Positions 6,744-31,895 are shown, counted from the first letter of the stretch. The stretch is DNA of 32,000 nucleotides from Candidatus Saccharimonadota bacterium (GCA_016699955.1 CP064993.1:1110001-1142000); one strand, 5' to 3'. The notes: a model not told the origin generated them from the sequence alone. Program-made: numbers and translations.

Positions 6744-6919
6744 GAGATACATGGCTATATCGCAATTTTTCCATACTCCTCAAAAGTAAGCAGCCAGATA
6801 GCAGTCTAAACTTTAATATCAGAATTCAGTCCATATCAAAACTGCCCACTATCAGAAACGAACTTGAGTGAAGCTTCGGCAATATATACGGCCCCTGCTT
6901 GCAACTGTGATATCAACAT

Positions 6920-6994
6920 CTCGTATTCACCGATACGGTGATATATACTAACAACATGAAAAGAACCTCTCCAAGAACCATCGATATAGTAATA
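6920..6994 (+). repeat. Copy A of a 75-nt duplicated promoter / 5'-CDS module (partner at 12681-12755)
   Basis: By manual alignment, 65 of 75 positions are identical to 12681-12755 on the same strand. Confidence 0.85.
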
Positions 6995-7974: not shown

Positions 7975-8985
7975 TTAGGCCACTTCCATGCCGGATTCTA
8001 AACTGTCAACATCGGCTGCAGCCCGGGCAACTGTTGTGTTCGGGTTTGTTTCGAACATATCGCAATATGACAGATAAGATACCGAAAGGACTCGCGTCGC
8101 TCCATAATACAAACTACCGCCAGTATATAGCGCCGATTTTGCACTTGCGGCCGTCGCGTCACTTTTAGCTGCAATTATGTTGTTTTGTACACCAAACACT
8201 TGTGTGACTCCGGACGGTAGATTGGCAAGTGCATATGTATCACGTTCCCCTGTGGTGGCAGAGCCGGTGTAGTCTGCACTAGAGTACGGAAGTTCGTCTA
8301 CCAACTGGTAGTTATTGACTTGGTCGGCGTCCGAACCGGTAAGTTGAGAGTAGGTGCCATTGCCGTTTGGTGTCAACACATGCACACGCACATCGCCTAA
8401 AAAGGTATTGTTGGTGCTACCGGTAGAATTTAAAATATATACATCGTCAAAAAAGACGGTAGTACTATTCGAGTTTACGAATGCCACCATATCAATAGTA
8501 GTGTTTGTTCCAGCGTTTTTTGTGTCGCCAGTGTAGGTGACTTCGTCGGTACCTGCACCGTTTAACCGCACTTTTACGACACCACCGGCGTCGGCAATAG
8601 TTGCCTGAACTTCAATAAAATACCATGCATTAAGAGCCAGAGGTGTCGTACCTGTCGCTAAAACGGTGCCACTGACACCCCCTCTCCTAATTTGCAGTAA
8701 GCCTGTTGTGACTTCTCGATTAACTGTAATATGGTTTGTCGCGCCATTATCGCCGTATAGCGCTACACCAGAGCCATTGGTGCTAACAATATTAGTCCGC
8801 ATAGCAAAACCGCAAGTAACCTGAGCCGATGCGGAAATAAGCCTAGATGCAACAGAGACGAAGCCACTCGTAATAGACAACCCGGTTCCAAAACGTGTAG
8901 TAGCGTTCGTGGATACAGAACCGCTAAGATTCCATTTTAAAGCAACATCACCTGCGTCAAAACTATCTATAAATAATAATGCCAT
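7975..8985 (-). CDS. Phage structural-like protein (probable lectin/jelly-roll-type, tail-associated)
   Basis: MALLFIDSFDAGDVALKWN... is an N-terminus typical of phage tail or structural proteins as remembered. The composition is rich in T/S/G/N and looks beta-rich. Its start shares 1 nt with the upstream stop (TAATG at 8985). Confidence 0.5.
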   Translation of the reverse strand: MALLFIDSFDAGDVALKWNLSGSVSTNATTRFGTGLSITSGFVSVASRLISASAQVTCGFAMRTNIVSTNGSGVALYGDNGATNHITVNREVTTGLLQIRRGGVSGTVLATGTTPLALNAWYFIEVQATIADAGGVVKVRLNGAGTDEVTYTGDTKNAGTNTTIDMVAFVNSNSTTVFFDDVYILNSTGSTNNTFLGDVRVHVLTPNGNGTYSQLTGSDADQVNNYQLVDELPYSSADYTGSATTGERDTYALANLPSGVTQVFGVQNNIIAAKSDATAASAKSALYTGGSLYYGATRVLSVSYLSYCDMFETNPNTTVARAAADVDSLESGMEVA

Positions 8986-10412
8986 TACATTACCTCCACT
9001 TGTACTGTTAAATTACTGCCGGCTACCGTGCTACCTATTTGGTCTATATCGACCGTTATGTAGGCCCCGTCGGCAACTGTTGTTATGTCCATATTAGTTA
9101 CTTTACCCGAAGTATTAGCACTAGTTGCAATAGTGGGCCGATTGCCTTGAGTGCTAAAAATCGTTGACCCGTTGCTATTGATGTCAATAAGTATTGACGA
9201 ACCGGTAGGTGCTGTGCCAACACTAGCACGCACGCTGCGAATAGTCCACGTTGTACCCGAGTCGTTGTAAAGCCTGTGCGTACCCGATACTACTACCAAC
9301 GTGCCCGAATACGAAAAGGGGTATGTGCGCGTTAGTGCCACAGTTGGTATTTGGGAGATTGGCACCTTTGTGCCGCTGTCTAGCGATGCATAGCCGTTTG
9401 CAGCAGCCTTGTTGATCGTTTGCTCGGCGCCTACTATACGGCTGTCGTTACCTTCGGCAGCCGTGCCAACACCCGTACCGTAAGTAACTGTTAGCGTGCG
9501 GTCGGCAGATAAGTCGCCACCACCTGTTAAACCAGTACCAGTAATAATCTGCCTGGTTGTTGGTACTGTGCTATTTAGCGCTGTTTGTGTCGCTGTCGAC
9601 ACAGGTTTGTCTGCGTCGCTGGTATTGTCTACATTTGCAAGCCCAACGGCAGTTTTGTCTAGTGCTTGCCAGGTTTTGTCACCACGCCAATACTGACCAG
9701 TAGTACCAGCAGTAATAGTTGGTTCTTTGCCGGCAAGCGCGGCGTTGACTGTACTGGTGTCTGCCTTATTAGCTAAGCCTGGAACGGTGGGCGAAGTAGC
9801 GGTGCCACCTAAGTCACCGGTAAGCTGAACAATACCCTTAGTGGTTGGAGAAGCGTCTGGAACGCTTGCAGTAGCGCCGTCGACATATGCTTTGCTGGCG
9901 GCATGGTTGGGTAGTGTTGGTACTGGAACAATTGGGGAGATGGTAAAAGTTTTGGTGCCGACCACTACTTCATTTCCGGTAGTGTGGACAGTAGTCGTGT
10001 TGTCGGCTTTTGTTGCAAGTGCAGTGTTGACTGTACTGGTGTCTGCCTTATTGGCTAAGCCTGGAACGGTCGGCAAAGTAGCGGTACCGTCTAAGTCACC
10101 AGCTAGCTGAACGATACCCTTAGTGGTTGGAGAAGCGTCTGGAACGCTTGTAGAAGCGCCGTCGACATATGCTTTGCTGGCGGCATGGTTGGGTAGTGTT
10201 GGTACTGGAACAATAGGGGAAAAGATAAAAGTTTTCGTGCCGCCCACTGCTTGGTTGCCGGTAGTGTGGACAGTAGTCGTGTTGTCGGCTTTTGTTGCAA
10301 GTGAACCGGTTTGTTTTAACGTGCCGTCAGCATTATGCTCAACCAAAAGAAAATCATTGAGAATATCTCCCCATAGACCATCATCACCGCCAGACGTAGG
10401 TAATCGACTCAC
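8985..10412 (-). CDS. Phage tail-fibre-like protein with two tandem 94-aa fibre repeats
   Basis: GTG start. The N-terminus is GDDGLWGDILNDFLLVEHNADGTLK. The repeats contain G.KTF...P.VP.P..PNHAASKAYVD, a phage tail-fibre repeat pattern. The C-terminal domain looks beta-rich. Confidence 0.65.
   Translation of the reverse strand: MSRLPTSGGDDGLWGDILNDFLLVEHNADGTLKQTGSLATKADNTTTVHTTGNQAVGGTKTFIFSPIVPVPTLPNHAASKAYVDGASTSVPDASPTTKGIVQLAGDLDGTATLPTVPGLANKADTSTVNTALATKADNTTTVHTTGNEVVVGTKTFTISPIVPVPTLPNHAASKAYVDGATASVPDASPTTKGIVQLTGDLGGTATSPTVPGLANKADTSTVNAALAGKEPTITAGTTGQYWRGDKTWQALDKTAVGLANVDNTSDADKPVSTATQTALNSTVPTTRQIITGTGLTGGGDLSADRTLTVTYGTGVGTAAEGNDSRIVGAEQTINKAAANGYASLDSGTKVPISQIPTVALTRTYPFSYSGTLVVVSGTHRLYNDSGTTWTIRSVRASVGTAPTGSSILIDINSNGSTIFSTQGNRPTIATSANTSGKVTNMDITTVADGAYITVDIDQIGSTVAGSNLTVQVEVM
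9735..10298 (-). repeat. Tandem duplication, 2 x 282 nt, inside the tail-fibre-like gene
   Basis: The DNA starting at 9841 and the DNA starting at 10123 align at an offset of exactly 282 nt with high identity. This corresponds to aa 39-132 and 133-226. Confidence 0.9.
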
Positions 10413-12631: not shown

Positions 12632-12680
12632 TTATCAAAAATAATAACATAATCGCACCGCAAAAAAGGTGTTTTAAAAG

Positions 12681-12755
12681 CTCGTATTCGTCGATATGGT
12701 GATATATACTCAAAACATGAAAAGAACCTATCCAAGCACACTCGATATAGTAATT
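12681..12755 (+). repeat. Copy B of the 75-nt duplicated module; here it forms a 14-codon upstream ORF (12717-12761)
   Basis: It encodes MKRTYPSTLDIVIV*. Its TGA overlaps the ATG at 12758 (GTATGAATATG). Confidence 0.85.
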
Positions 12756-18433: not shown

Positions 18434-18544
18434 GCATACAGTTTAAAACAATTGGTTGGGCTATAATAGGTGGCCTTAAAATTAAGAAACAAAAAACGCA
18501 TGGTAATGTTACACAAACTTGGCTGCTGGGGTTGGTTTCGAATC

Positions 18545-18919
18545 CTAAATCAAAAGCCTAACTTTTATCTGGATGAGGTCTTTATATAAATTCGCTAGTT
18601 TCTTGTCAAATGTAACAAACACTTCACAGCCGTTACGAATGGCGACTGCCAGCTGGAGAGCGTCTTCAAAGTCATTGTCTCGTGCATTTGCAAAAGCCCA
18701 CTCAAAATCGCTTGCTTCTAAGCTTAGTAATGTATAGTCGGCCAAAAATGAGCGCAGTATTGGCAGCTCAACGATTGATCTGCCAAAATGGGTAACGATA
18801 TGTGCTGTAAGGGCAGATATGAAAATCTCTCCGCTTTGCTCTTCAAGCAATTTCCGAGCACTTTTTTCATTTGGCCGACTTAGCAGTATTTCTAGCAGAA
18901 TGTTTGCGTCTAAGTACAT
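18545..18919 (-). CDS. vapC: PIN-domain toxin (VapC-like)
   Basis: MYLDANILLE (the first acidic residue of the PIN domain), with later acidic residues including a C-terminal TFD. It directly abuts the upstream antitoxin gene. Confidence 0.75.
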   Translation of the reverse strand: MYLDANILLEILLSRPNEKSARKLLEEQSGEIFISALTAHIVTHFGRSIVELPILRSFLADYTLLSLEASDFEWAFANARDNDFEDALQLAVAIRNGCEVFVTFDKKLANLYKDLIQIKVRLLI

Positions 18920-19232: not shown

Positions 19233-19263
19233 ACAAGGGCCAATAACTCGTTGGCTGGAGATA
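19233..19263 (+). repeat. R1: 31-nt direct repeat ACAAGGGCCAATAACTCGTTGGCTGGAGATA (partner at 21012-21042)
   Basis: 26 of 31 positions match R2. It contains the hairpin GCCAA-N7-TTGGC and the TTGGCTGG junction motif. Confidence 0.8.
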
Positions 19264-21011: not shown

Positions 21012-21042
21012 ACAGGGGCCAATAACTGCTTGGCTGGGCATA
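21012..21042 (+). repeat. R2: ACAGGGGCCAATAACTGCTTGGCTGGGCATA, the partner of R1
   Basis: See R1. The two copies bracket the sortase/DUF3494 gene pair. Confidence 0.8.
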
Positions 21043-24852: not shown

Positions 24853-25018
24853 TTTCTGGGGATGAGGGGTTCGGCCTTGCTTCGGCAAGCCCGCAGCTAC
24901 GCGGTTAGCTGCACCCTCTCACCAGAAGATTGACTTGAGGTTAGAAAAATTCAATCTCAAATATGCAAAAAGCCGGCTCAAGAAGACCAGGCTTTTTGCA
25001 TGACTGGGGATGAGGGAT
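24853..25018 (-). repeat. Junction unit U1: core motif copy 1 (24853-24870), helix-closed two-hairpin core, bidirectional hairpin (24963-25001), core motif copy 2 (25001-25018)
   Basis: GGGGATGAGGG (24858-24868) pairs with CCCTCTCACC (24914-24923). Inner hairpins are CTTGC-TTCG-GCAAG and GCAGCTA-CGCGGT-TAGCTGC. ATGCAAAAAGCC pairs with GGCTTTTTGCAT. Confidence 0.8.
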
Positions 25019-25133
25019 GATTATAGAACCCTGATCGGCGTGGAGGCCGAGGCGCTATGTTTGCGTGAAATGAACGAAGTCGACATCGAGATTCAAGTAC
25101 ATGCTTACGACCATTCACTTTCACGCAAATAGT

Positions 25134-25964
25134 CTACGGTACGTGCATTCGATGGCCAACAGCATTTCTCAGAACGTACGTTATGCCGACGATGACTCCG
25201 CCGATTAGTGCAGGCAGTATATTAAGTTCAGCGCTTCGCACTGCTGACTCGGTACTAACTTTGAAGAGATAAAAATTATCCGACCCAAGTTGATACGAGC
25301 CTTCGAAGCCACTCGAAACCATTACAAGTGGGATAATAGCCTGAACCATTATTATGACCCCAGCCCCTATGAGCGCAGTTATCATGAACGAACTCCGTTG
25401 TTTTGATTTTTCAGTAGACTCTCTGCCGGTCTTTGCAGCAGTGGCATTACTTGAGAATACTTCCGTACCAATTTTAGTATCTAGAATCAGTACATCTTTG
25501 AATTTCAAATATTTCCATAATTTAGATGCTATCCATATATCACCAACGGCACCAGCGAAGTTTCCGAGAAAACCAATCATAAAAAGATTCTGGTAAGCAG
25601 GAAATAATATGCTTAAGACGATAAAGACTACCGATAGTACCACGAAGGGTAAATATGCTACAAGGAGCATATTTTTGACAGGTAATTTTTGGTCTGAAGT
25701 TGCATAGGCGACAGGTATAATGCCCGCAATACCAATCCCAAACCTTGGCCAAGCGCCACCCAGTAAAAACCCGAGGCCATGTAGTAGCTCATGAATAACT
25801 AGAGTAATCAGGTAAACGGCTAGAGCCTCAAAACCAAAGCTCTGCGACGTCTCACCCACTATACCTTGAAAAATTGCAGCGCCAATGAACAAGAACAGTA
25901 TCATTTGTGCACTGAGCGCATACGACTGTTGCCTCGTTATTTGAATTGTTTCTATTTTTTTCAT
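25134..25964 (-). CDS. Membrane protein with an HExxH motif (DUF3267-like putative zincin peptidase)
   Basis: 276 aa and multi-pass, with LVIHELLHGLGFLLGG embedded between TM helices. Confidence 0.5.
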   Translation of the reverse strand: MKKIETIQITRQQSYALSAQMILFLFIGAAIFQGIVGETSQSFGFEALAVYLITLVIHELLHGLGFLLGGAWPRFGIGIAGIIPVAYATSDQKLPVKNMLLVAYLPFVVLSVVFIVLSILFPAYQNLFMIGFLGNFAGAVGDIWIASKLWKYLKFKDVLILDTKIGTEVFSSNATAAKTGRESTEKSKQRSSFMITALIGAGVIIMVQAIIPLVMVSSGFEGSYQLGSDNFYLFKVSTESAVRSAELNILPALIGGVIVGITYVLRNAVGHRMHVP

Positions 25965-26031: not shown

Positions 26032-26232
26032 TGGCTGGGGATGAGGGATAGCGGCTAAAACCTTCTCCACTTGTTTGCAAAATGAACAAGCTCATTTTTC
26101 TACACTGCGCTACGCCGAACCTCCCAATACGTTTTGCTCCGCAAAACTTCGGAGCCTCGTATCCCAACAGTCGCAGAGTCAAGAAGAAACACCCTGCAGC
26201 CGTAGGGTGTTTCTTCTTGACTGGGTATCTGT
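26032..26232 (-). repeat. Junction unit U2: core motif copy 3 (26032-26049), structured core, 18-bp hairpin (26178-26221), degenerate motif CTGGGTATC
   Basis: TGGCTGGGGATGAGGGATAG is present. GGGAT/GAGG pairs with CCTC-GT-ATCCC (26155-26165). Hairpins are CTTGTT..AACAAG and GCTCCG..CGGAGC. GTCAAGAAGAAACACCCT pairs with AGGGTGTTTCTTCTTGAC. Confidence 0.75.
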
Positions 26233-26249
26233 GACGAAGTTTGTATCAT

Positions 26250-26400
26250 ACCCCCTAGACCTACGGGTCTAAACTAAAAGAGGAGATCCAGCCTGATGAA
26301 GTTTGGAGAAATGGCGACAGCCATTTCATCCACTGTTCTAGCGTCTGGTCTCCTCTGTTGGTGTGTCAATCTATACCAGGTTGAGTGATGCTACTCAAAT
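26250..26400 (+). ncRNA. Candidate IS110 bridge-RNA-like structured leader
   Basis: Nested helices: 26279-26291 pairs with 26345-26356, GAAATGGC-GACA-GCCATTTC lies at 26308-26327, and TAGACC-TACG-GGTCTA at 26256-26271. Internal-loop segments match DNA at 27477-27492 (see findings). Confidence 0.35.
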
Positions 26401-26519
26401 AACACACAAGCCTATTGTACGCCAACGCCGGAGGGGACTGCAATGCATCTCCGCTTTCTTCTCTTTTCCTTTTCTCTTCTTTCTTTAACAGATGAACGTA
26501 ACACTGTAGGAGGATTACT

Positions 26520-27470
26520 ATGCAAGTAGTCGGTTTTGACGTAGGTAAAGACAGTTTATTCGGCGCCCGGATAGATGCCAGTACGAACGTAAAAGAACGC
26601 TTTGAGATACGAAACAACCAGGCAGCAATTACTACTGTCCTGGCGGACCTGCGGAGCCGCTACCGACGGCTTCTGGTAGCTAGTGAGTCAACCGCTGAAT
26701 ACCACCTAACACTCGCCCGGGTGTGCCTTGATCTGGGTATCCCATTTCGCCTGCTTAACCCGATTATTACTAAGCAATTTACCCGCGCTACCGTCCGGAA
26801 GATGAAGACCGATCCGTCTGACGCCTGGGTCATTGCTAAGCTCGCTCAACAAGGTGAAGGAACTCGTGTCACTGAAGATTTGTTCCATCCCAACAAACCA
26901 ATCCTGCGTACTAGCATGCGCTTGACGAGATTTTCCCAGATACTAGACCTCACGCAGCAACGACTTGCCACCAGATTACCGGAGGAGACTGCGTTACTAG
27001 AGGAACTACATGACTGCCAGGTACGCTTGGAGACGGCGGTAGCCGTCTTCCGAACGAGAGCCAGAAGTACGACTGATGACCATCTCCACCAACTACTCAT
27101 GACGATCCCGGGCATTGGTGAAACCATTGCCACTACCCTGATTGCTGAGATTGGAGATATTACTAGATTTCATGGGCCGAAGGCACTAGTGGCATTTGCC
27201 GGCCTCGACCCACGCGTCCGGCAGAGTGGCTACAGTTTGCAGCGCAATACCAAACTCACGAAACGAGGCTCGCCGTATTTACGGCGTAACCTCTACATTG
27301 CGGCGAGTGTGGCTCAGCGCTACGACAACCAGTACAAAGTTGCATTCAACAAGAAACGAGCTGAGGGCAAACGCAACAAAGCCGCCACCATTGTGGTGGC
27401 TAGAAAGATTCTCAACACTGCTTACGCAGTATGGAGTAGTGATACTCCGTACCACCCACCTAAAGCTTGA
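26520..27470 (+). CDS. IS110-family transposase (DEDD recombinase)
   Basis: The N-terminus VVGFDVGKDSL carries the first D of the DEDD motif. The C-terminus IPGIGETIATTLIAEIGDITRFHGPKALVAFAGLDPRVRQSG matches the Transposase_20-type signature. AGGAGG lies 7 nt upstream of the ATG. Confidence 0.92.
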   Translation: MQVVGFDVGKDSLFGARIDASTNVKERFEIRNNQAAITTVLADLRSRYRRLLVASESTAEYHLTLARVCLDLGIPFRLLNPIITKQFTRATVRKMKTDPSDAWVIAKLAQQGEGTRVTEDLFHPNKPILRTSMRLTRFSQILDLTQQRLATRLPEETALLEELHDCQVRLETAVAVFRTRARSTTDDHLHQLLMTIPGIGETIATTLIAEIGDITRFHGPKALVAFAGLDPRVRQSGYSLQRNTKLTKRGSPYLRRNLYIAASVAQRYDNQYKVAFNKKRAEGKRNKAATIVVARKILNTAYAVWSSDTPYHPPKA

Positions 27471-27558
27471 CTTGAGATACCAGGTCTAGAACTTTATTGG
27501 TAAACTCAATATGTATTTCTTATTAAGCTGCCCGTCGTAGACGTACTTCGAACTTTTG

Positions 27559-28119
27559 TTAGGAAGTGACTGGGTAACTGTTTGTAGCTACATCGATGCT
27601 ATTAACTGAAAGCAACTGTCTGGAACAATTATCGCCGATAATCATATCAGGTATTGCTATTATTTCGCCCTGATATACGAATGTCGTTTTGTCGGCGACA
27701 ATATTATGATCTTTGTCGCAGAATAATGAAGCAAATGAGGGATTAACATTGCCTTTCTCACTAATCATGACCACTTGCTGTGTGCCGGAGATGTCTTCAG
27801 TCCATTGATTGTTTACTGTAAACGGTCCGATTTTATGTTCAGTAGTAAGAGTTGCGCTACCTTCAACTTCATGATTTGATGTGATAATACTCAACACCCT
27901 TGCTCCAGTAGCACTGATATTCAGGTATAACTTATTACCGTTAGCAGTGAAGAACGGATGCTTATACTCTGAGATAGCAGTCATTTGTGGGCTTTCGGAT
28001 GAGCTGCTGCATGAAGCCAGCGCCCCTGATAGTAATAAACTTGATGCAAGTACTGCTGCATTTCTAGGTGTAGCTAGTCGTCGACCAGGAGATTCTGCAA
28101 TTGATTTTCTAATAAACAT
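27559..28119 (-). CDS. Putative lipoprotein
   Basis: Signal sequence ending in the lipobox LASC (SSLLLSGALASCSSSS), 186 aa. Promoter-like TTGACC-17 nt-TTATTA ends 7 nt before the ATG. Confidence 0.65.
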   Translation of the reverse strand: MFIRKSIAESPGRRLATPRNAAVLASSLLLSGALASCSSSSESPQMTAISEYKHPFFTANGNKLYLNISATGARVLSIITSNHEVEGSATLTTEHKIGPFTVNNQWTEDISGTQQVVMISEKGNVNPSFASLFCDKDHNIVADKTTFVYQGEIIAIPDMIIGDNCSRQLLSVNSIDVATNSYPVTS

Positions 28120-28166
28120 TAGATGATAATAACATAAAAGTACGGGTCAGGTCAACTAATATAGCG

Positions 28167-29687
28167 GTAGCTGCTCACTACCCCAAAGTAGCAAGTGCCT
28201 TAAAGTAACCCGTAGGGTTAGTGCGCCACGTAGTGGTGCACAAAGATAAGATGGTAGCGAGTGCTCGGGCACCCTTTTCTGTTTGGCTACCGAAAGAGCG
28301 TTTGCGCTTTAGTACAAGTTGCCTTAGGTCGCGTTCAGCTCGGTTATTGTCACAGGGCGTGTTGTAGATGAGACAGGCAAACAACTTTGCTTGTCCTGCT
28401 CTGGTAAGCTGAGCTTTCAGCTTGGTGAGTTTTACTGGCTCGGTGGCATTAGTCTGCAATAACGGTTGAAGCCGTTGCCAAAACACATTGCTTTGCTTTG
28501 TCCTGGCTGCAGGATCATAGGTTTTTGCGAGGCATTGTCTCAGATCCTGGTAGATACTCGCGAACTGCTCGTACCACCAAGTTACGTCAGGTAACTGTTC
28601 TTCGGGTAGGTTGTCGTTGTAGCGCAGATCCCGAATGCAACGGTACAAGTGAGCCCAGCATAGCTGTTGCTGTCCGGGGAGACTACGGTATACGGCGTAG
28701 TCATCAGAAATACGGACACCCGTAAACTGTTCACCAATGAGATTACGGGCGTGGGTTACACCACGACTGTTCTCTAGTGAATAGCAAACCTTTTCACTGC
28801 TGGCATCGCTAAGGCACCATGCGTAGCCATAGCCGTCATTCTGTTGGATTGCCCACGGCGTTTCATCAACATGGATGGCTGGTGCGGCGCGAATGTCAGC
28901 TTTGAGTTGGCCAAGAGCCTGACGCCACCGCTCGTGTTGTTTCTGAAGGATACTGGCTACTTCTCCGTCAGATACGGCAAGGCCGTACAAACTATGTAGC
29001 AACTGTGTTACCTGTGTATAGCTCATACCGAGTGCGCTGATCAGGTGACAGATAAGCAGCTTGGAATTAGGCCCAAGCGTCACCACTTGGCCGCCAAGTG
29101 CTTTGCCACTGGTGGCTTTGCCGCAAGCGGCACAAACACCACGCTGCACGAGATACTTTGTCACGAGGCGTGAAGAGTAGTTTGGAGTTAATTCAGGCGA
29201 AGGGATATCCTCTTCATAGCGATCATGGGTTGTGACGTTTCTTAACTCGCCACCGCAGAGACAGAGTTCAGGTAGGGGATGACTACCTCATTCATAATGG
29301 CTGTAGCGGGTGGAATTGGCCGACGGTAGGAGGCTTTGGTGCGGGGCAATTTCTGGATCTCGGGCTGCACTGGAACTGCCGTTCCAGTCGGTGGCCGTTT
29401 CTTCTTGCCAAATACCATGGTTTGAAGCTCTGCTATCTGAATTGCCTGAGTCTTGTTTTGCTCAAGTGCTTGGTTGAGCAGCTGGCGGAGCTCCTTGTTC
29501 TCAGCTTTCAATTCGGCGATCTGTATGCGATCATGCGCATGTAGCTTCCGAAGGTTACGGAGCTCTACCATCCGTGCGGTAATAACATCGTCTGAAAGTT
29601 TTCGAGTCATATGTGTTTGTTTTGATTCGTCCTAAACTAAAGTTTAGCCCGAATGCTTTGATGAGGCAAGAGGTAGTGAGCGGTTAC
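28167..29687 (-). mobile_element. IS66-family insertion sequence (single-ORF type), complete ends
   Basis: The left terminal repeat GTAGCTGCTCACTACCCC (28167-28184) matches the reverse complement of 29670-29687 (GTAACCGCTCACTACCTC) at 15 of 18 positions. A perfect 8-bp direct repeat ATATAGCG flanks the element at 28159-28166 and 29688-29695. Confidence 0.9.
28178..29610 (-). pseudogene. IS66-family transposase split by one frame change (ORFs 29242-29610 and 28178-29164, or up to 29287 in the second frame)
   Basis: The N-terminal coiled-coil ORF ends at 29242. The frame one nucleotide back (-1) is open from 29287 and reads HPLPELCLCGGELRN...VCAACGK (zinc-finger region). It continues into the DDE core (DETPW..., CWAHLYRCIRDL, CDNNRAERDLR). 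The frames overlap at 29245-29287 around a C4 run. Confidence 0.8.
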
Positions 29688-29718
29688 ATATAGCGATTAA
29701 TAACATAATACTTATGCT

Positions 29719-29736
29719 TGGCTAGGGATGAGGGAT
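29719..29736 (-). repeat. Core junction motif copy 4 (TGGCTAGGGATGAGGGAT)
   Basis: 17 of 18 positions match the copy at 26032-26049, and both continue with AG. It lies between the cupin stop (29776) and the IS66 target site. Confidence 0.8.
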
Positions 29737-29775
29737 AGAACTATTCCACACTTTGTTCGGAATAATTCATAGATC

Positions 29776-30168
29776 CTATGCCGTTGTTTTGCCGTCAAAT
29801 TTATCTTCAACTTCATCGGCCTTCGTAGGCTGAATAGTGTCCTTAAGGTGATTGGGTGGCGAATAAAGCGTGTAAAGTTTTAGCTCGACATCGCCCGTAT
29901 TGGTAACATTGTGGTAGGTGCCTGCTGGAATAATAATCGCCCAATCATCCTTCAGCTCATATTCATTTTCACCGTTGTTTAACACAACTTTCGCTTTACC
30001 ACTCTCGACCCTTATAAATTGATCGAGTCCGTGAATCTCATTACCAATTTCTGTGCCAGGAGGTAGGCTCATAAGAACTAGCTGTGTGTAATGCGTGGTG
30101 TGGATTACACGACGGTAATCTGAATTTTCGGTGGTTAGCTTTCCAATGTTTTTTACAAAGTATTTCAT
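29776..30168 (-). CDS. Cupin domain protein
   Basis: MKYFVKNIGKL... with G.EIGNEIHGLDQFIRVESG and IIIPAGTYHNVTNTG cupin motifs. Start 30168 is preferred: a TATACT -10 lies 6 nt upstream, and the ORF-track extension to 30324 runs through junction unit U3. Confidence 0.85.
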   Translation of the reverse strand: MKYFVKNIGKLTTENSDYRRVIHTTHYTQLVLMSLPPGTEIGNEIHGLDQFIRVESGKAKVVLNNGENEYELKDDWAIIIPAGTYHNVTNTGDVELKLYTLYSPPNHLKDTIQPTKADEVEDKFDGKTTA

Positions 30169-30221: not shown

Positions 30222-30425
30222 TGGCTGGGGATGAGGGATTCGACCTACTTTCAGCAGGCCTGTCGCAACTTCTTTGCAAAACTAGTTTGCAAGAGTTGAC
30301 TCCCTTGCGAATTGCCACCGGCAATTCTCACCCCGATCCTTAAGGTCAGAAATTCGAGCCCATAATCTCTAATATGCAAAAAGCCGGGTCAAGAAGACCA
30401 GTCTTTTTGCATGGCTGGGGGTAAG
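30222..30425 (-). repeat. Junction unit U3: core motif copy 5 (30222-30239, extended through a T-loop-like TTCGACC), helix-closed structured core, bidirectional hairpin (30373-30412), partial copy 6 (30412-30425)
   Basis: GGGG(A)TGAGGG (30227-30237) pairs with TTCTCACCCC (30325-30334). The inner hairpin GAATTGCC-ACC-GGCAATTC is perfect. The terminal segment AATATGCAAAAAGCCGG.TCAAGAAGACCAG.CTTTTTGCATG.CTGGGG is shared with U1. Confidence 0.8.
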
Positions 30426-30555
30426 TCCGACGCTTTGAACCCTTTATTTTCAGATTTCGTGCTCAATTGTCAGAAACCAAAGAAATTGGGCTTCATCCAC
30501 TTCAAGGGTAAAGTTACTGTTGCAGAACCTTAAGGGAATGAAGCAACCGGCTAGT

Positions 30556-31596
30556 TTACTCTATATCAAGAAGCACTCCGTACGAATCTTTGACGATTTG
30601 TTTCATGAGACTTATGTCGTTCATCTCATAGAACGCGATACAAGCACGTCGGTAGCGTGTCGGCTCGATACTGCCAAGGGTGATCGGTGGATATTCGTTG
30701 CTTTCAAGAATTGCGTTTGCGAGCACCCGTGCGGTTCTTTTATTGCCGTCGGCAAAAGGCTGCAGATAGGATATAAGCAGTAAAATTGCAAGTGCCTTAT
30801 CGAGTGGTTGTTCCATGGAGTTGACGGCGCTGATTACCTTATCGAAGTTCTCGTCGATTTGCGCACTGTGAGTAAGGGGGATGTATTTTGATCCGCTAAT
30901 ACGAACGGCTGCTGTACGCAAGCCATACGATACATCGAGATCTTGGACTAGTAGCTCATGGAGCCTGAGTATCAGCGGGCGTGATATTGTTTTGAAGCTT
31001 TCCCTGTTCCCAAGTATGAAGTCATAGGCTTTTTGATGGTTTACAATCATCACGGCTTCTTGGTGAGTTTTGCCAGCAGCTTCTACCCTGTCTAGCAATA
31101 ATGTTTCTGTCTCTAGCTCCGAGTATGTATTGCCTTCGATGGAGCTAGATTTCCAAGCAAACTCTATAAGCCATTTCTGGCGCCATCTTGCTAACAGGGT
31201 GCTGTCCAGAGATTCCAGAAAATGTTGATACTTTGTTACGATCATCCTTTCGGCATTACCAAAAACGCCCTCGCCGATGTATCGCGCAGTCATTTCTGGT
31301 GCGTCAAGCAGATAACGAACCGACTGCCTTGCATCGTCTCTTAAATACGCATCGATTGCATCTGCCGAACGTTCTATATGAAGCCGTCCTAGTGTTGTAA
31401 GAGAATGTTGGCGACTAGGGCCAGCACCTTCGCTGGCTACTAGGCCTGCTACCGTCAGAGCTTTAACATCTCGCTGGATCGTATCGTCAGATACAGCGAA
31501 GCCTATTTCTGTCATCATCTCTAATACTTTTGCCGTGCTCGCTGGCAGCATAAACAGAACATTCAGTAGGTCACTTTGTCGTTTCTGTAGTTTCAT
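30556..31596 (-). CDS. Fic/DOC-family protein with an N-terminal HTH-like region and a degenerate active-site motif
   Basis: The Fic core region reads ISYLQPFADGNKRTARVLAN, against the canonical HPF.(D/E)GNGR..R. The N-terminus STAKVLEMMTEIGFAVSDDTIQRDVKAL is HTH-like. Start MKLQKRQ (31596) is preferred to the ORF-track start at 31626. Confidence 0.75.
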   Translation of the reverse strand: MKLQKRQSDLLNVLFMLPASTAKVLEMMTEIGFAVSDDTIQRDVKALTVAGLVASEGAGPSRQHSLTTLGRLHIERSADAIDAYLRDDARQSVRYLLDAPEMTARYIGEGVFGNAERMIVTKYQHFLESLDSTLLARWRQKWLIEFAWKSSSIEGNTYSELETETLLLDRVEAAGKTHQEAVMIVNHQKAYDFILGNRESFKTISRPLILRLHELLVQDLDVSYGLRTAAVRISGSKYIPLTHSAQIDENFDKVISAVNSMEQPLDKALAILLLISYLQPFADGNKRTARVLANAILESNEYPPITLGSIEPTRYRRACIAFYEMNDISLMKQIVKDSYGVLLDIE

Positions 31597-31784
31597 ACGT
31601 GCCCTAATTTTACCACAACACCGCAAAGGTGGCGTATTTTAGTCTCGAATACCCGCATATTGCGGTGATTACCTGGCGTTTTTACTGATACTCACCTTGC
31701 TCATATCAACATGTCGCGGAGTATACAGTGATGTGATTTTTTTCAAATTGCCTAAAACATACCATCTATACAGTGTGATTATAT

Positions 31785-31802
31785 TGGCTGGGGCTAGTGG
31801 AT
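31785..31802 (-). repeat. Core junction motif copy 7 (TGGCTGGGGCTAGTGGAT, diverged)
   Basis: The first 9 nt are identical to the consensus and 14 of 18 match overall. It is intergenic, upstream of the Fic gene. Confidence 0.55.
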
Positions 31803-31857
31803 GTATTCCAGGAAAACCGACAATTCCACATCACGGGTGTGGTCTCACTAGAGATGG

Positions 31858-31863
31858 TATAAT
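31858..31863 (+). promoter_or_regulatory. Extended -10 (TGGTATAAT) for the last plus-strand gene
   Basis: TGG precedes TATAAT (31858-31863). AAGGAG lies at 31881-31886 and the ATG at 31896. Confidence 0.45.
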
Positions 31864-31895
31864 CAGCACATTATAGTAAGAAGGAGCATGGTCGT

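Follow-up and report, generated by a model that had tools for sequence, protein, structure and literature searches.

Junction units ending in the 3' end of tRNA-Gln separate the genes of a putative cassette array in a Saccharibacteria genome

The window, a 32,000-nt stretch of the genome of a Candidatus Saccharimonadota bacterium, contains an array in which single genes are separated by junction units that end in copies of the 3' end of tRNA-Gln. The preferred explanation, to which we attach about even confidence, is that the cassettes of this region are tied to tRNA-Gln and that the junction modules serve as their attachment or boundary sites; the region would then be a flexible island of small cassettes anchored at tRNA-Gln. 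The body of one type of unit is a conserved four-helix structured element of approximately 110 nt that is absent from Rfam, and the module is therefore a candidate for a new structured element. Saccharibacteria are ultra-small episymbionts with reduced genomes, and their gain of genes is little understood; a recurrent variable island at the 3' end of tRNA-Gln would be one concrete means by which genes flow into and out of this lineage.

The repeated motif of the junctions, GGGGATGAGG(GAT), corresponds on the complementary strand to the final ~17-25 nt of tRNA-Gln(CUG) and covers part of the T-loop, the 3' strand of the T-stem, the 3' strand of the acceptor stem and GCCA; the tRNA-Gln genes of relatives terminate in ...GGGGGTTCGAATCCCTCATCCCCAGCCA. 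A scan of one genome per species for the 17-mer GGCTRGGGATGAGGGAT yielded at least 120 matching loci, and among the matches listed nearly all belong to Saccharibacteria or other bacteria of the candidate phyla radiation (CPR). The match was identified by ARAGORN as a tRNA-Gln 3' end on the opposite strand in 37 of the 40 loci checked. Within the window, there are five copies of CTGGGGATGAGGGAT when a single mismatch is allowed (24856, 25004, 26035, 29722, and 30225, all on the plus strand), a number reached in none of 100 window shuffles. Five window copies also match, on the minus strand throughout, a tRNA-Gln HMM built from 41 distinct tRNA-Gln sequences, starting at profile position 49, 51, 54, or 57 and extending to 74 (nhmmer E-values of 7e-5 to 0.18), and weak matches to this HMM are located at 30442-30412 and 31801-31785 (minus strand). 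Taken together, the window carries five good and about five degenerate tRNA-end copies, all on the minus strand, as are all 10 matches of the CC(C)AG(C/T)CA type. ARAGORN identified no intact tRNA in the window, the tRNA-Gln HMM aligns there at positions 49-74 only, and a cloverleaf with a CUG or UUG anticodon is absent from the window, which is consequently devoid of a tRNA-Gln gene. A decayed, formerly intact tRNA at 30413-30500 or 31785-31880 was considered and dropped, as these segments show no more than weak similarity to a tRNA 3' end. A viral origin of the motif was likewise rejected: its 20-mer had no match in viral contigs and its 15-mer had 57 single, chance-like matches. An Rfam scan of the window returned no match at the gathering threshold and noise at E-values of up to 10. 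For annotation, the motif illustrates that a “GGGG...” repeat resembling the start of an RNA can be the tail of a tRNA on the other strand.

Three composite units, U1 (24853-25018), U2 (26032-26232), and U3 (30222-30425), had been proposed from the sequence alone, and they are indeed present at these positions, at the junctions of a cassette-like gene array. The motif copies recognised in these units are real; two further good copies, at 25004 and 29722 and outside the U-type units, and degenerate copies at 26218-26232, 27567-27581, 30412-30442, and 31785-31817 had been overlooked. Read on the minus strand, the unit layout comprises a more or less decayed tRNA-end copy, a terminator-like hairpin, a spacer, a structured body, and a well-kept tRNA end, in this order. 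Within the spacer, the 3' third of the tRNA recurs in inverted and degenerate form, and the terminal tRNA-end copy is kept far better than the box that starts the same unit. Along this strand, a boundary motif (31817-31785) is followed by the Fic gene, U3, the cupin gene, a short cassette end (29783-29719), the gene for a 186-aa protein, U2, the DUF3267 gene, and U1, after which comes a convergent YtxH gene. The cargo separated by the modules includes the Fic, cupin, 186-aa, and DUF3267 genes, all four of which are co-directional with the tRNA ends, plus two IS elements. U3 and 22 other units make up one family, to which U1 also belongs in truncated and diverged form, while U2 falls into a second family, each of the three unit types in the window being nearer to units of other genomes than to its neighbours.

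The upper limit of the clear array is marked by the variant boundary motif TTTCCTGGAATACATCCACTAGCCCCAGCCAA (31785-31817, minus strand). This motif (TTTCCTGRAAYACATCCACTAACCCCAGCCAAG) has homologous 33-mers of ~90% identity at the 3' ends of cassettes or genes in L194 (twice), L231, L223, L071, and L216; boundary motifs of this type are usually followed by a terminator hairpin in other Saccharibacteria arrays. The Fic/DOC family gene (30556-31626, minus strand; Pfam) lies in a cassette whose 3' end is the degenerate tRNA-end box GGGTTCAAAGCGTCGGACTTACCCCCAGCCA (30412-30442, minus strand), a weak nhmmer match with a homologous end in L060. The terminator-like hairpin T3 (30374-30412, minus strand; fold z -4.4) comes next and precedes a spacer (30335-30373, minus strand) in which the T-arm region of the tRNA is repeated, inverted and degenerate (GGGCTCGAAT...; columns 44-92 of alignment A3), and which conforms to the family consensus TGGCT..AG..GGGATTCGAAC.CCCGA. 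The U3 body (30246-30334, minus strand), defined by family alignment and covariation, consists of the closing 5' strand GGGGTGA (30328-30334) and the hairpins Pb (30309-30327), Pc (30266-30298), and Pd (30242-30260), and the unit ends in the tRNA-end copy GGTCGAATCCCTCATCCCCAGCCA (30222-30245, minus strand; tRNA positions 51-74; nhmmer E 7e-5).

Further along the minus strand, the cupin gene (29776-30168, ATG at 30168; Pfam) is followed by the short cassette end (29719-29783, minus strand; motif search, nhmmer, fold z -3.0), which is composed of a partner sequence CATAGGATC that pairs at chance level in the duplex test, a hairpin (29738-29768), and the tRNA-end copy ATCCCTCATCCCTAGCCA (29719-29736). 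In many cases, the last tRNA-end copy precedes a conserved AAGCATAAGYAYWATG, which forms a small AT-rich hairpin, with a terminator beyond it (window positions 29703-29718, and L180, L227, L229, L236, L201, and L217); the AAGCATAAGYAYWATG motif is inverted in L221, L223, and L216. An IS66-family element (28167-29687, minus strand; Pfam DDE_Tnp_IS66) is inserted in the 5' leader of the 186-aa cassette. It is flanked by an 8-bp duplication, ATATAGCG, at 28159-28166 and 29688-29695 and has imperfect terminal inverted repeats; two ORFs (28178-29164 and 29242-29610) share what should be a single transposase, and the element is therefore probably inactive. The 186-aa protein itself (27559-28119, minus strand; ORF call) has no Pfam match.

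An IS110-family element (26233-27566, plus strand; transposase 26520-27470; Pfam DEDD_Tnp_IS110 and Transposase_20) is flanked by a pair of degenerate tRNA-end boxes, ACAGATACCCAGTCA, on the minus strand (26218-26232 and 27567-27581). Counted with these boxes (26218-27581), it sits exactly in the junction unit, between two 15-nt copies ACAG(A/T)TACCCAGTCA of the degenerate box, and a guide (bridge) RNA with the box as its target could be encoded in the non-coding left end of the element (26233-26519). The hairpin that had been described before the second motif copy is, in U2, the perfect 19-bp hairpin T2 (26177-26222, minus strand; fold z -8). The U2 body (26050-26170, minus strand; GGGAGGTTCGG... 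followed by hairpins) was assigned by homology, with 83% identity to L211 over 127 nt and weaker similarity to L235, L223, L219, and L199. Compensatory hairpins were seen by eye in the U2-type family, whose MAFFT alignment is too heterogeneous for a consensus fold, and the whole U2 unit is no better folded than its shuffles (z -1.2). It ends in a tRNA-end copy at 26032-26049 (minus strand; tRNA positions 57-74; motif search and nhmmer).

The DUF3267 gene, coding for a putative zincin peptidase (25134-25964, minus strand; Pfam), belongs to a cassette whose 3' end is a tRNA-end copy with an expanded T-loop (25001-25031, minus strand; tRNA positions 49-74; nhmmer), a type of end also present in L186. 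Directly after this copy lies the terminator-like hairpin T1 (24963-25001, minus strand; fold and scan). T1, T2, and T3 are hairpins with fold z-scores of -4 to -8, and T1 is additionally predicted by a terminator scan of the minus strand. They conform to the make-up of an intrinsic terminator, with GC pairs in the hairpin and a run of T behind it, and are thus candidate terminators. T1 and T3 belong to the segment of about 60 nt that U1 and U3 had been said to share; it is 62 nt long with 90% identity (24953-25014 and 30364-30425) and forms an A-tract/T-tract hairpin in both units (z -4.0 for T1, z -4.4 for T3). As T1 and T3 are 90% identical while the bodies differ, these hairpins could stem from local duplication or gene conversion rather than from import. 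The U1 body (24874-24928, minus strand; fold z -4.7) is a truncated U3-type unit with 28.4 bits (E 4e-6) in the covariance model R1 and resembles the Pc/Pd part of L234, L229, and L210 in BLAST comparisons. Its 5' partner CTTCTGGTGAGAGGGT (24913-24928) pairs with the terminal tRNA-end copy GAACCCCTCATCCCCAG (24853-24873, minus strand; tRNA positions 54-71; nhmmer and motif search), enclosing hairpins at 24893-24912 and 24873-24892. The local hairpins noted earlier, i.e., GAATTGCC/GGCAATTC, the UUCG-capped stem, and GCAGCTA/TAGCTGC, are all present. The proposed pairing of each motif with an inverted partial copy exceeds chance for U1, where only 2 of 300 shuffles form an equal duplex, but not for U2 (140/300) or U3 (115/300).

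The fold of the unit body was analysed in a 23-sequence alignment of U3-type units by RNAalifold, with a four-pair extension of the middle helix. RNAalifold predicted a closing helix and three hairpins, and all three arms end in triloops. Across the 36 pairs, 95.4% of cells are paired, compared to 31-50% in controls with the partners displaced by one to three columns; double changes occur in 27 of the 36 pairs, and the covariation score of 0.51 exceeds those of shuffled (0.17) and slid (0.04-0.09) alignments. None of 500 shuffles reached the observed pairing or covariation score. The covariation is confined to the three internal helices of the U3-type body. The closing helix, formed by GGGG.GA and the UC..CCCC of the tRNA end, had been singled out as the place where covariation should be sought; it shows none, four of its six pairs being invariant. 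The helix is conserved, and its 3' strand, which has to match the tRNA, leaves little room for covariation. G·U cells (48) outnumber A·C cells (11) in the alignment, and R1 scores U3 with 123 bits on the minus strand as opposed to 10 bits on the plus strand, indicating that the fold belongs to the tRNA-sense strand. The polarity in the sequence-only reading was therefore the wrong way round, as units on the minus strand finish with the motif instead of starting with it. R1 also retrieved members outside its training set (L098 with 82 bits, L144 with 79 bits, and L095 with 51 bits). R1 matches of 25-32 bits on genuine tRNA-Gln genes were rejected as structural homology, as these alignments rest mainly on the shared 3' end. 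Two findings that had been named in advance as counting against the earlier reading apply in part: the closing helix lacks covariation, and the motif is a fragment of a known gene, the tRNA-Gln 3' end. Its central idea is nevertheless upheld, in that the body is a conserved structured element with strong covariation in three internal helices.

Comparable arrangements exist in related genomes. In many Saccharibacteria, an intact tRNA-Gln gene is followed by a terminator, a unit, and a second tRNA end, at a spacing of about 175-200 nt; the pattern of the metagenome search selected spacings of 173-203 nt. In an unbiased set of species, the module was found within 350 nt of tRNA-Gln in 16 of 81 loci, with further downstream copies in seven of the 81, which characterises the element as accessory. 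Copies within one locus are always co-oriented, with no antisense case, and the terminator always lies between tRNA and unit. Unit length and type vary widely (65 to 280 nt). An intact tRNA is present at the proximal end of most related loci; L217, by contrast, is an “orphan” array that lacks an intact tRNA but has five tRNA ends within 3.2 kb, and in which cassettes are composed of gene, decayed box, terminator, unit, and tRNA end, and one unit is gene-less. The cargo located between tRNA ends in L060, L135, L166, L230, L186, and L194 includes genes for MFS, racemase, asparagine-synthase-like, and SAM synthetase proteins, as well as a glycosyltransferase, P-type ATPase, PLD, and protease. A homologue of the window cupin, 58% identical, is located within the tRNA-Gln array of L194.

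Several loci (L144:89-244, L098:30-186, and also L226 and L180) contain the 5' part of a tRNA (positions 1-50) fused to a U3-type body, and these fusions are situated upstream of an intact tRNA-Gln. The position of the body after the tRNA-Gln 5' part in L098 and L144 points to descent from, or recombination with, a copy of tRNA-Gln. The fusions look like a tRNA-Gln paralogue whose T-loop has taken up an insert of ~88 nt and whose 3' end has decayed. Such an insertion or intron of a tRNA-Gln paralogue (L144, L098) may be inseparable from the inverted-repeat reading, because the T arm itself is palindromic.

Two Clostridia MAGs (L130:4100-4731 and L092:2269-2588) carry the same tRNA-Gln 3' end with one to three tandem gene-less units of ~180-245 nt, each with its own terminator, which shows compensatory differences, and a GCCAGTGGC-loop hairpin like that of the Saccharibacteria units. 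A 13-mer, CCCTCATCCCCAG, occurs for unrelated reasons in further metagenome loci (L181, L203, L209, and L218; L206 and L214; L220), where it belongs to tandem repeats of ~198 nt that contain GC-rich hairpins, to microsatellite-like repeats of 18 nt, or to a protein-coding domain present in several copies.

Degenerate tRNA-end-like sequences are also found on the minus strand of the window at 18520-18545, 19251-19263, and 21031-21042, just after minus-strand genes. One of them, TAGGATTCGAAACCAACCCCAGCAGCCAAG, lies right after the stop codon of ORF 18545-18919 and another corresponds to a 32-nt repeat pair. The cassette island may therefore extend from about 18.5 kb to 31.8 kb. Elsewhere in the window, a 282-nt tandem duplication of 91% identity (9733-10296) is located inside ORF 8985-10412, a match to DUF5907 and to the phage baseplate domain BppL_N, and a 79-nt repeat of 86% identity (6915-6993 and 12676-12754) comprises the ATG and first codons of small ORFs and is possibly a shared promoter or leader. 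Three proteins encoded in the window were looked up by exact sequence, and no identical entry exists for any of them.

The island reading accounts for this arrangement as follows. In a site-specific recombination, the conserved tRNA end would provide the segment of identity or crossover, and the adjoining folded module the cassette-borne part of the attachment site, which would also bring a terminator to the position right after the regenerated tRNA or the upstream gene. The location of the terminator between tRNA and unit is expected if inserted DNA has to restore the 3' flank of the tRNA. Cassettes devoid of a recombinase would be moved in trans, and either single-stranded DNA or a transcript would adopt the strand-specific fold. 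The layout would then be like that of an integron array and the choice of target like that of tandem tRNA-integrating elements. The mobility of the cassettes is inferred from their layout only. In the window, direct repeats of the tRNA 3' segment, co-oriented with the tRNA, flank inserted DNA. Against this reading stand the negative search for a recombinase, the lack of an intact tRNA-Gln at either end of the window array, the near-identity of T1 and T3 next to differing bodies, the elaborate fold, and the closing helix without covariation. Domain searches identified no tyrosine or serine recombinase among 30 ORFs of the window and no recombinase domain among 10 cargo ORFs of L230, L186, and L194, and none was seen by eye in the cargo of L060, L135, and L166; the searches in relatives covered loci of at most 8-15 kb, a range that a distant gene would escape. 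A conserved recombinase upstream of tRNA-Gln was considered and discarded, as the protein clusters there are MetK, TrmD, RarA, ABC transporter and the like.

The main rival, and a serious one, holds that the units are genes or cis elements for a tRNA-Gln-derived, tRNA-shaped RNA that is handled by tRNA enzymes (RNase P, 3' trimming, and CCA addition). With its acceptor-like closing helix, 3' ...AGCCA tail, and three arms, such an RNA might serve as processing or stabilising punctuation between genes or as a decoy, and the cassette array would be a by-product of recombination between repeated copies. This explains the covariation better than the island reading does. No known att arm has the complexity of a four-way junction in which three helices covary and the linkers are conserved, an organisation typical of functional RNA. 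The conserved linkers are unpaired, and the G·U bias falls on the strand of the tRNA and the four cargo genes. Further features in its favour are the 21 nt identical to the tRNA 3' end, encoded CCA included, the terminator hairpins that bracket units on both sides in basal loci, the location of the window units 44-68 nt upstream of gene starts, the tandem gene-less units of the Clostridia MAG L130, and the body inside an otherwise complete tRNA-Gln 5' part in L144 and L098. However, a terminator stands between the promoter of the tRNA and the unit, and no promoter of the sigma-70 type is recognisable in the ~45-nt spacer, the conserved sequence of which is GGATTCGAAC.CCCGA. Moreover, the unit occurs in only about 20% of species, varies in length and type, and lacks an Rfam match. 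A tRNA-shaped RNA is regarded as somewhat improbable.

An extension of the island reading, advanced here with considerable reserve, is that Saccharibacteria and some Clostridia might possess a tRNA-Gln-anchored, integron-like mode of gene capture in which each single-gene cassette bears a tRNA-shaped foldback module with the tRNA-Gln 3' end as its terminus and an unlinked recombinase acts on the folded single strand. The DNA might, for instance, be acquired through natural competence, the module would be recombined with the tRNA gene or with other modules, and the tRNA promoter and tRNA-like processing sites may aid expression of the cassettes.

It was also considered that the copies are functionless, decaying relics of old integrations or of tandem duplications of the tRNA-Gln 3' flank, with variable genes accruing by homologous recombination after natural transformation and the repeats serving as homology anchors only. 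The many degenerate boxes (30412-30442, 26218-32, and 31785-817), the possible decayed boundaries down to 18.5 kb, the near-identity of T1 and T3 within one genome, the patchy distribution, and the failure to find a recombinase would all agree with this. Yet relics would not keep three helices via compensatory changes across 23 genomes, nor is it expected of them that the terminal tRNA-end copy is better kept than the box at the unit start, and we hold this scenario to be unlikely.

The sequence-only reading had likened the units to integron attC sites. An array of attC sites (a CALIN), in favour of which are the imperfect inverted repeats with bulges around a variable centre, the co-oriented single-gene cassettes, and the gene-less units, is very improbable, as GTTRRRY/RYYYAAC cores occur at chance frequency (65 GTTRRRY matches in the window vs. 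70.7 expected) and are absent from unit ends, no integron integrase (IntI) is found, the conserved core is a tRNA end, and the body is a multi-helix junction instead of a single bulged hairpin. Hardly any weight is given to a function read from the plus strand, i.e., a tmRNA-like 5' end (GGGG...GGATTCGAC), a tRNA-Gln primer-binding site, or an antisense RNA: although U3 starts with GGGGATGAGGGATTCGAC on this strand and TGGCTGGGGATGAGGGAT is an exact complement of the 18 nt at the tRNA-Gln 3' terminus, the fold lies on the minus strand, the copies are co-oriented with and adjoin a real tRNA gene in relatives, there is no reverse transcriptase, and the tmRNA idea was rejected on negative ARAGORN and Rfam results, even at E-values of up to 10.

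The units were also compared to known systems. With regard to MITEs, an inverted copy of the tRNA 3' third is present at the unit start, the tRNA end is the only duplication, and unit copies were found only in tRNA-Gln-linked arrays. With the tRNA-like domain of tmRNA, YrlA, and tRNA-like punctuation elements they share an acceptor-like helix, an encoded NCCA tail, several arms, and an origin from tRNA. They differ from these RNAs in having no Rfam match and no anticodon-type loop, the arms ending in triloops instead, as well as in a G-rich acceptor partner without the U1-A72 pair of tRNA-Gln and in the terminator upstream. The attP of CTX-type phages is a folded single strand that is recombined by the host XerCD, the element itself lacking a recombinase. 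Here, too, two inverted imperfect copies of the target could fold into a duplex mimic of the target on one strand, but the target is a tRNA end and not dif.

The likeness to integrons and CALINs extends to co-oriented, promoter-poor single-gene cassettes, gene-less cassettes, and a structure-conserved, sequence-variable, possibly imperfectly palindromic site with a strand-specific fold. IS1111-attC elements insert in the attC sites of integrons and, similarly, an IS110-family element occupies a junction in the window. In contrast to integrons, the window has neither R''/R' GTTRRRY cores at the unit ends nor IntI, its conserved core is the tRNA 3' end, and in place of a lone bulged hairpin its site combines a multi-helix junction with a terminator.

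The closest parallel is provided by tandem elements at tRNA genes, i.e., islands, the tycheposons of Prochlorococcus, and cis-mobilisable elements (CIMEs), the latter being left by ICEs and likewise forming tandem or remnant elements at tRNA genes. Partial tRNAs between tandem elements or their remnants are a hallmark of tRNA-targeted integration; downstream of the tRNA gene, partial-tRNA 3' repeats divide the accessory genes into consecutive blocks, older blocks are displaced outward as newer ones arrive, and remnants without an integrase are frequent (10.1101/2020.12.28.424599). The arrays described here have the same partial-tRNA 3' direct repeats between gene blocks. Their blocks, however, are single genes of 0.5-1.2 kb without an integrase in any array examined, and several arrays, including that of the window, are devoid of an intact tRNA. 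Partial-tRNA repeats in islands are well known, whereas a covarying tRNA-like junction module bounding integrase-less single-gene cassettes was found neither in Rfam nor in the searchable literature. The conserved, covarying folded module of ~110-190 nt, present beside the tRNA end of each block, is a further difference from other tandem elements at tRNA genes.
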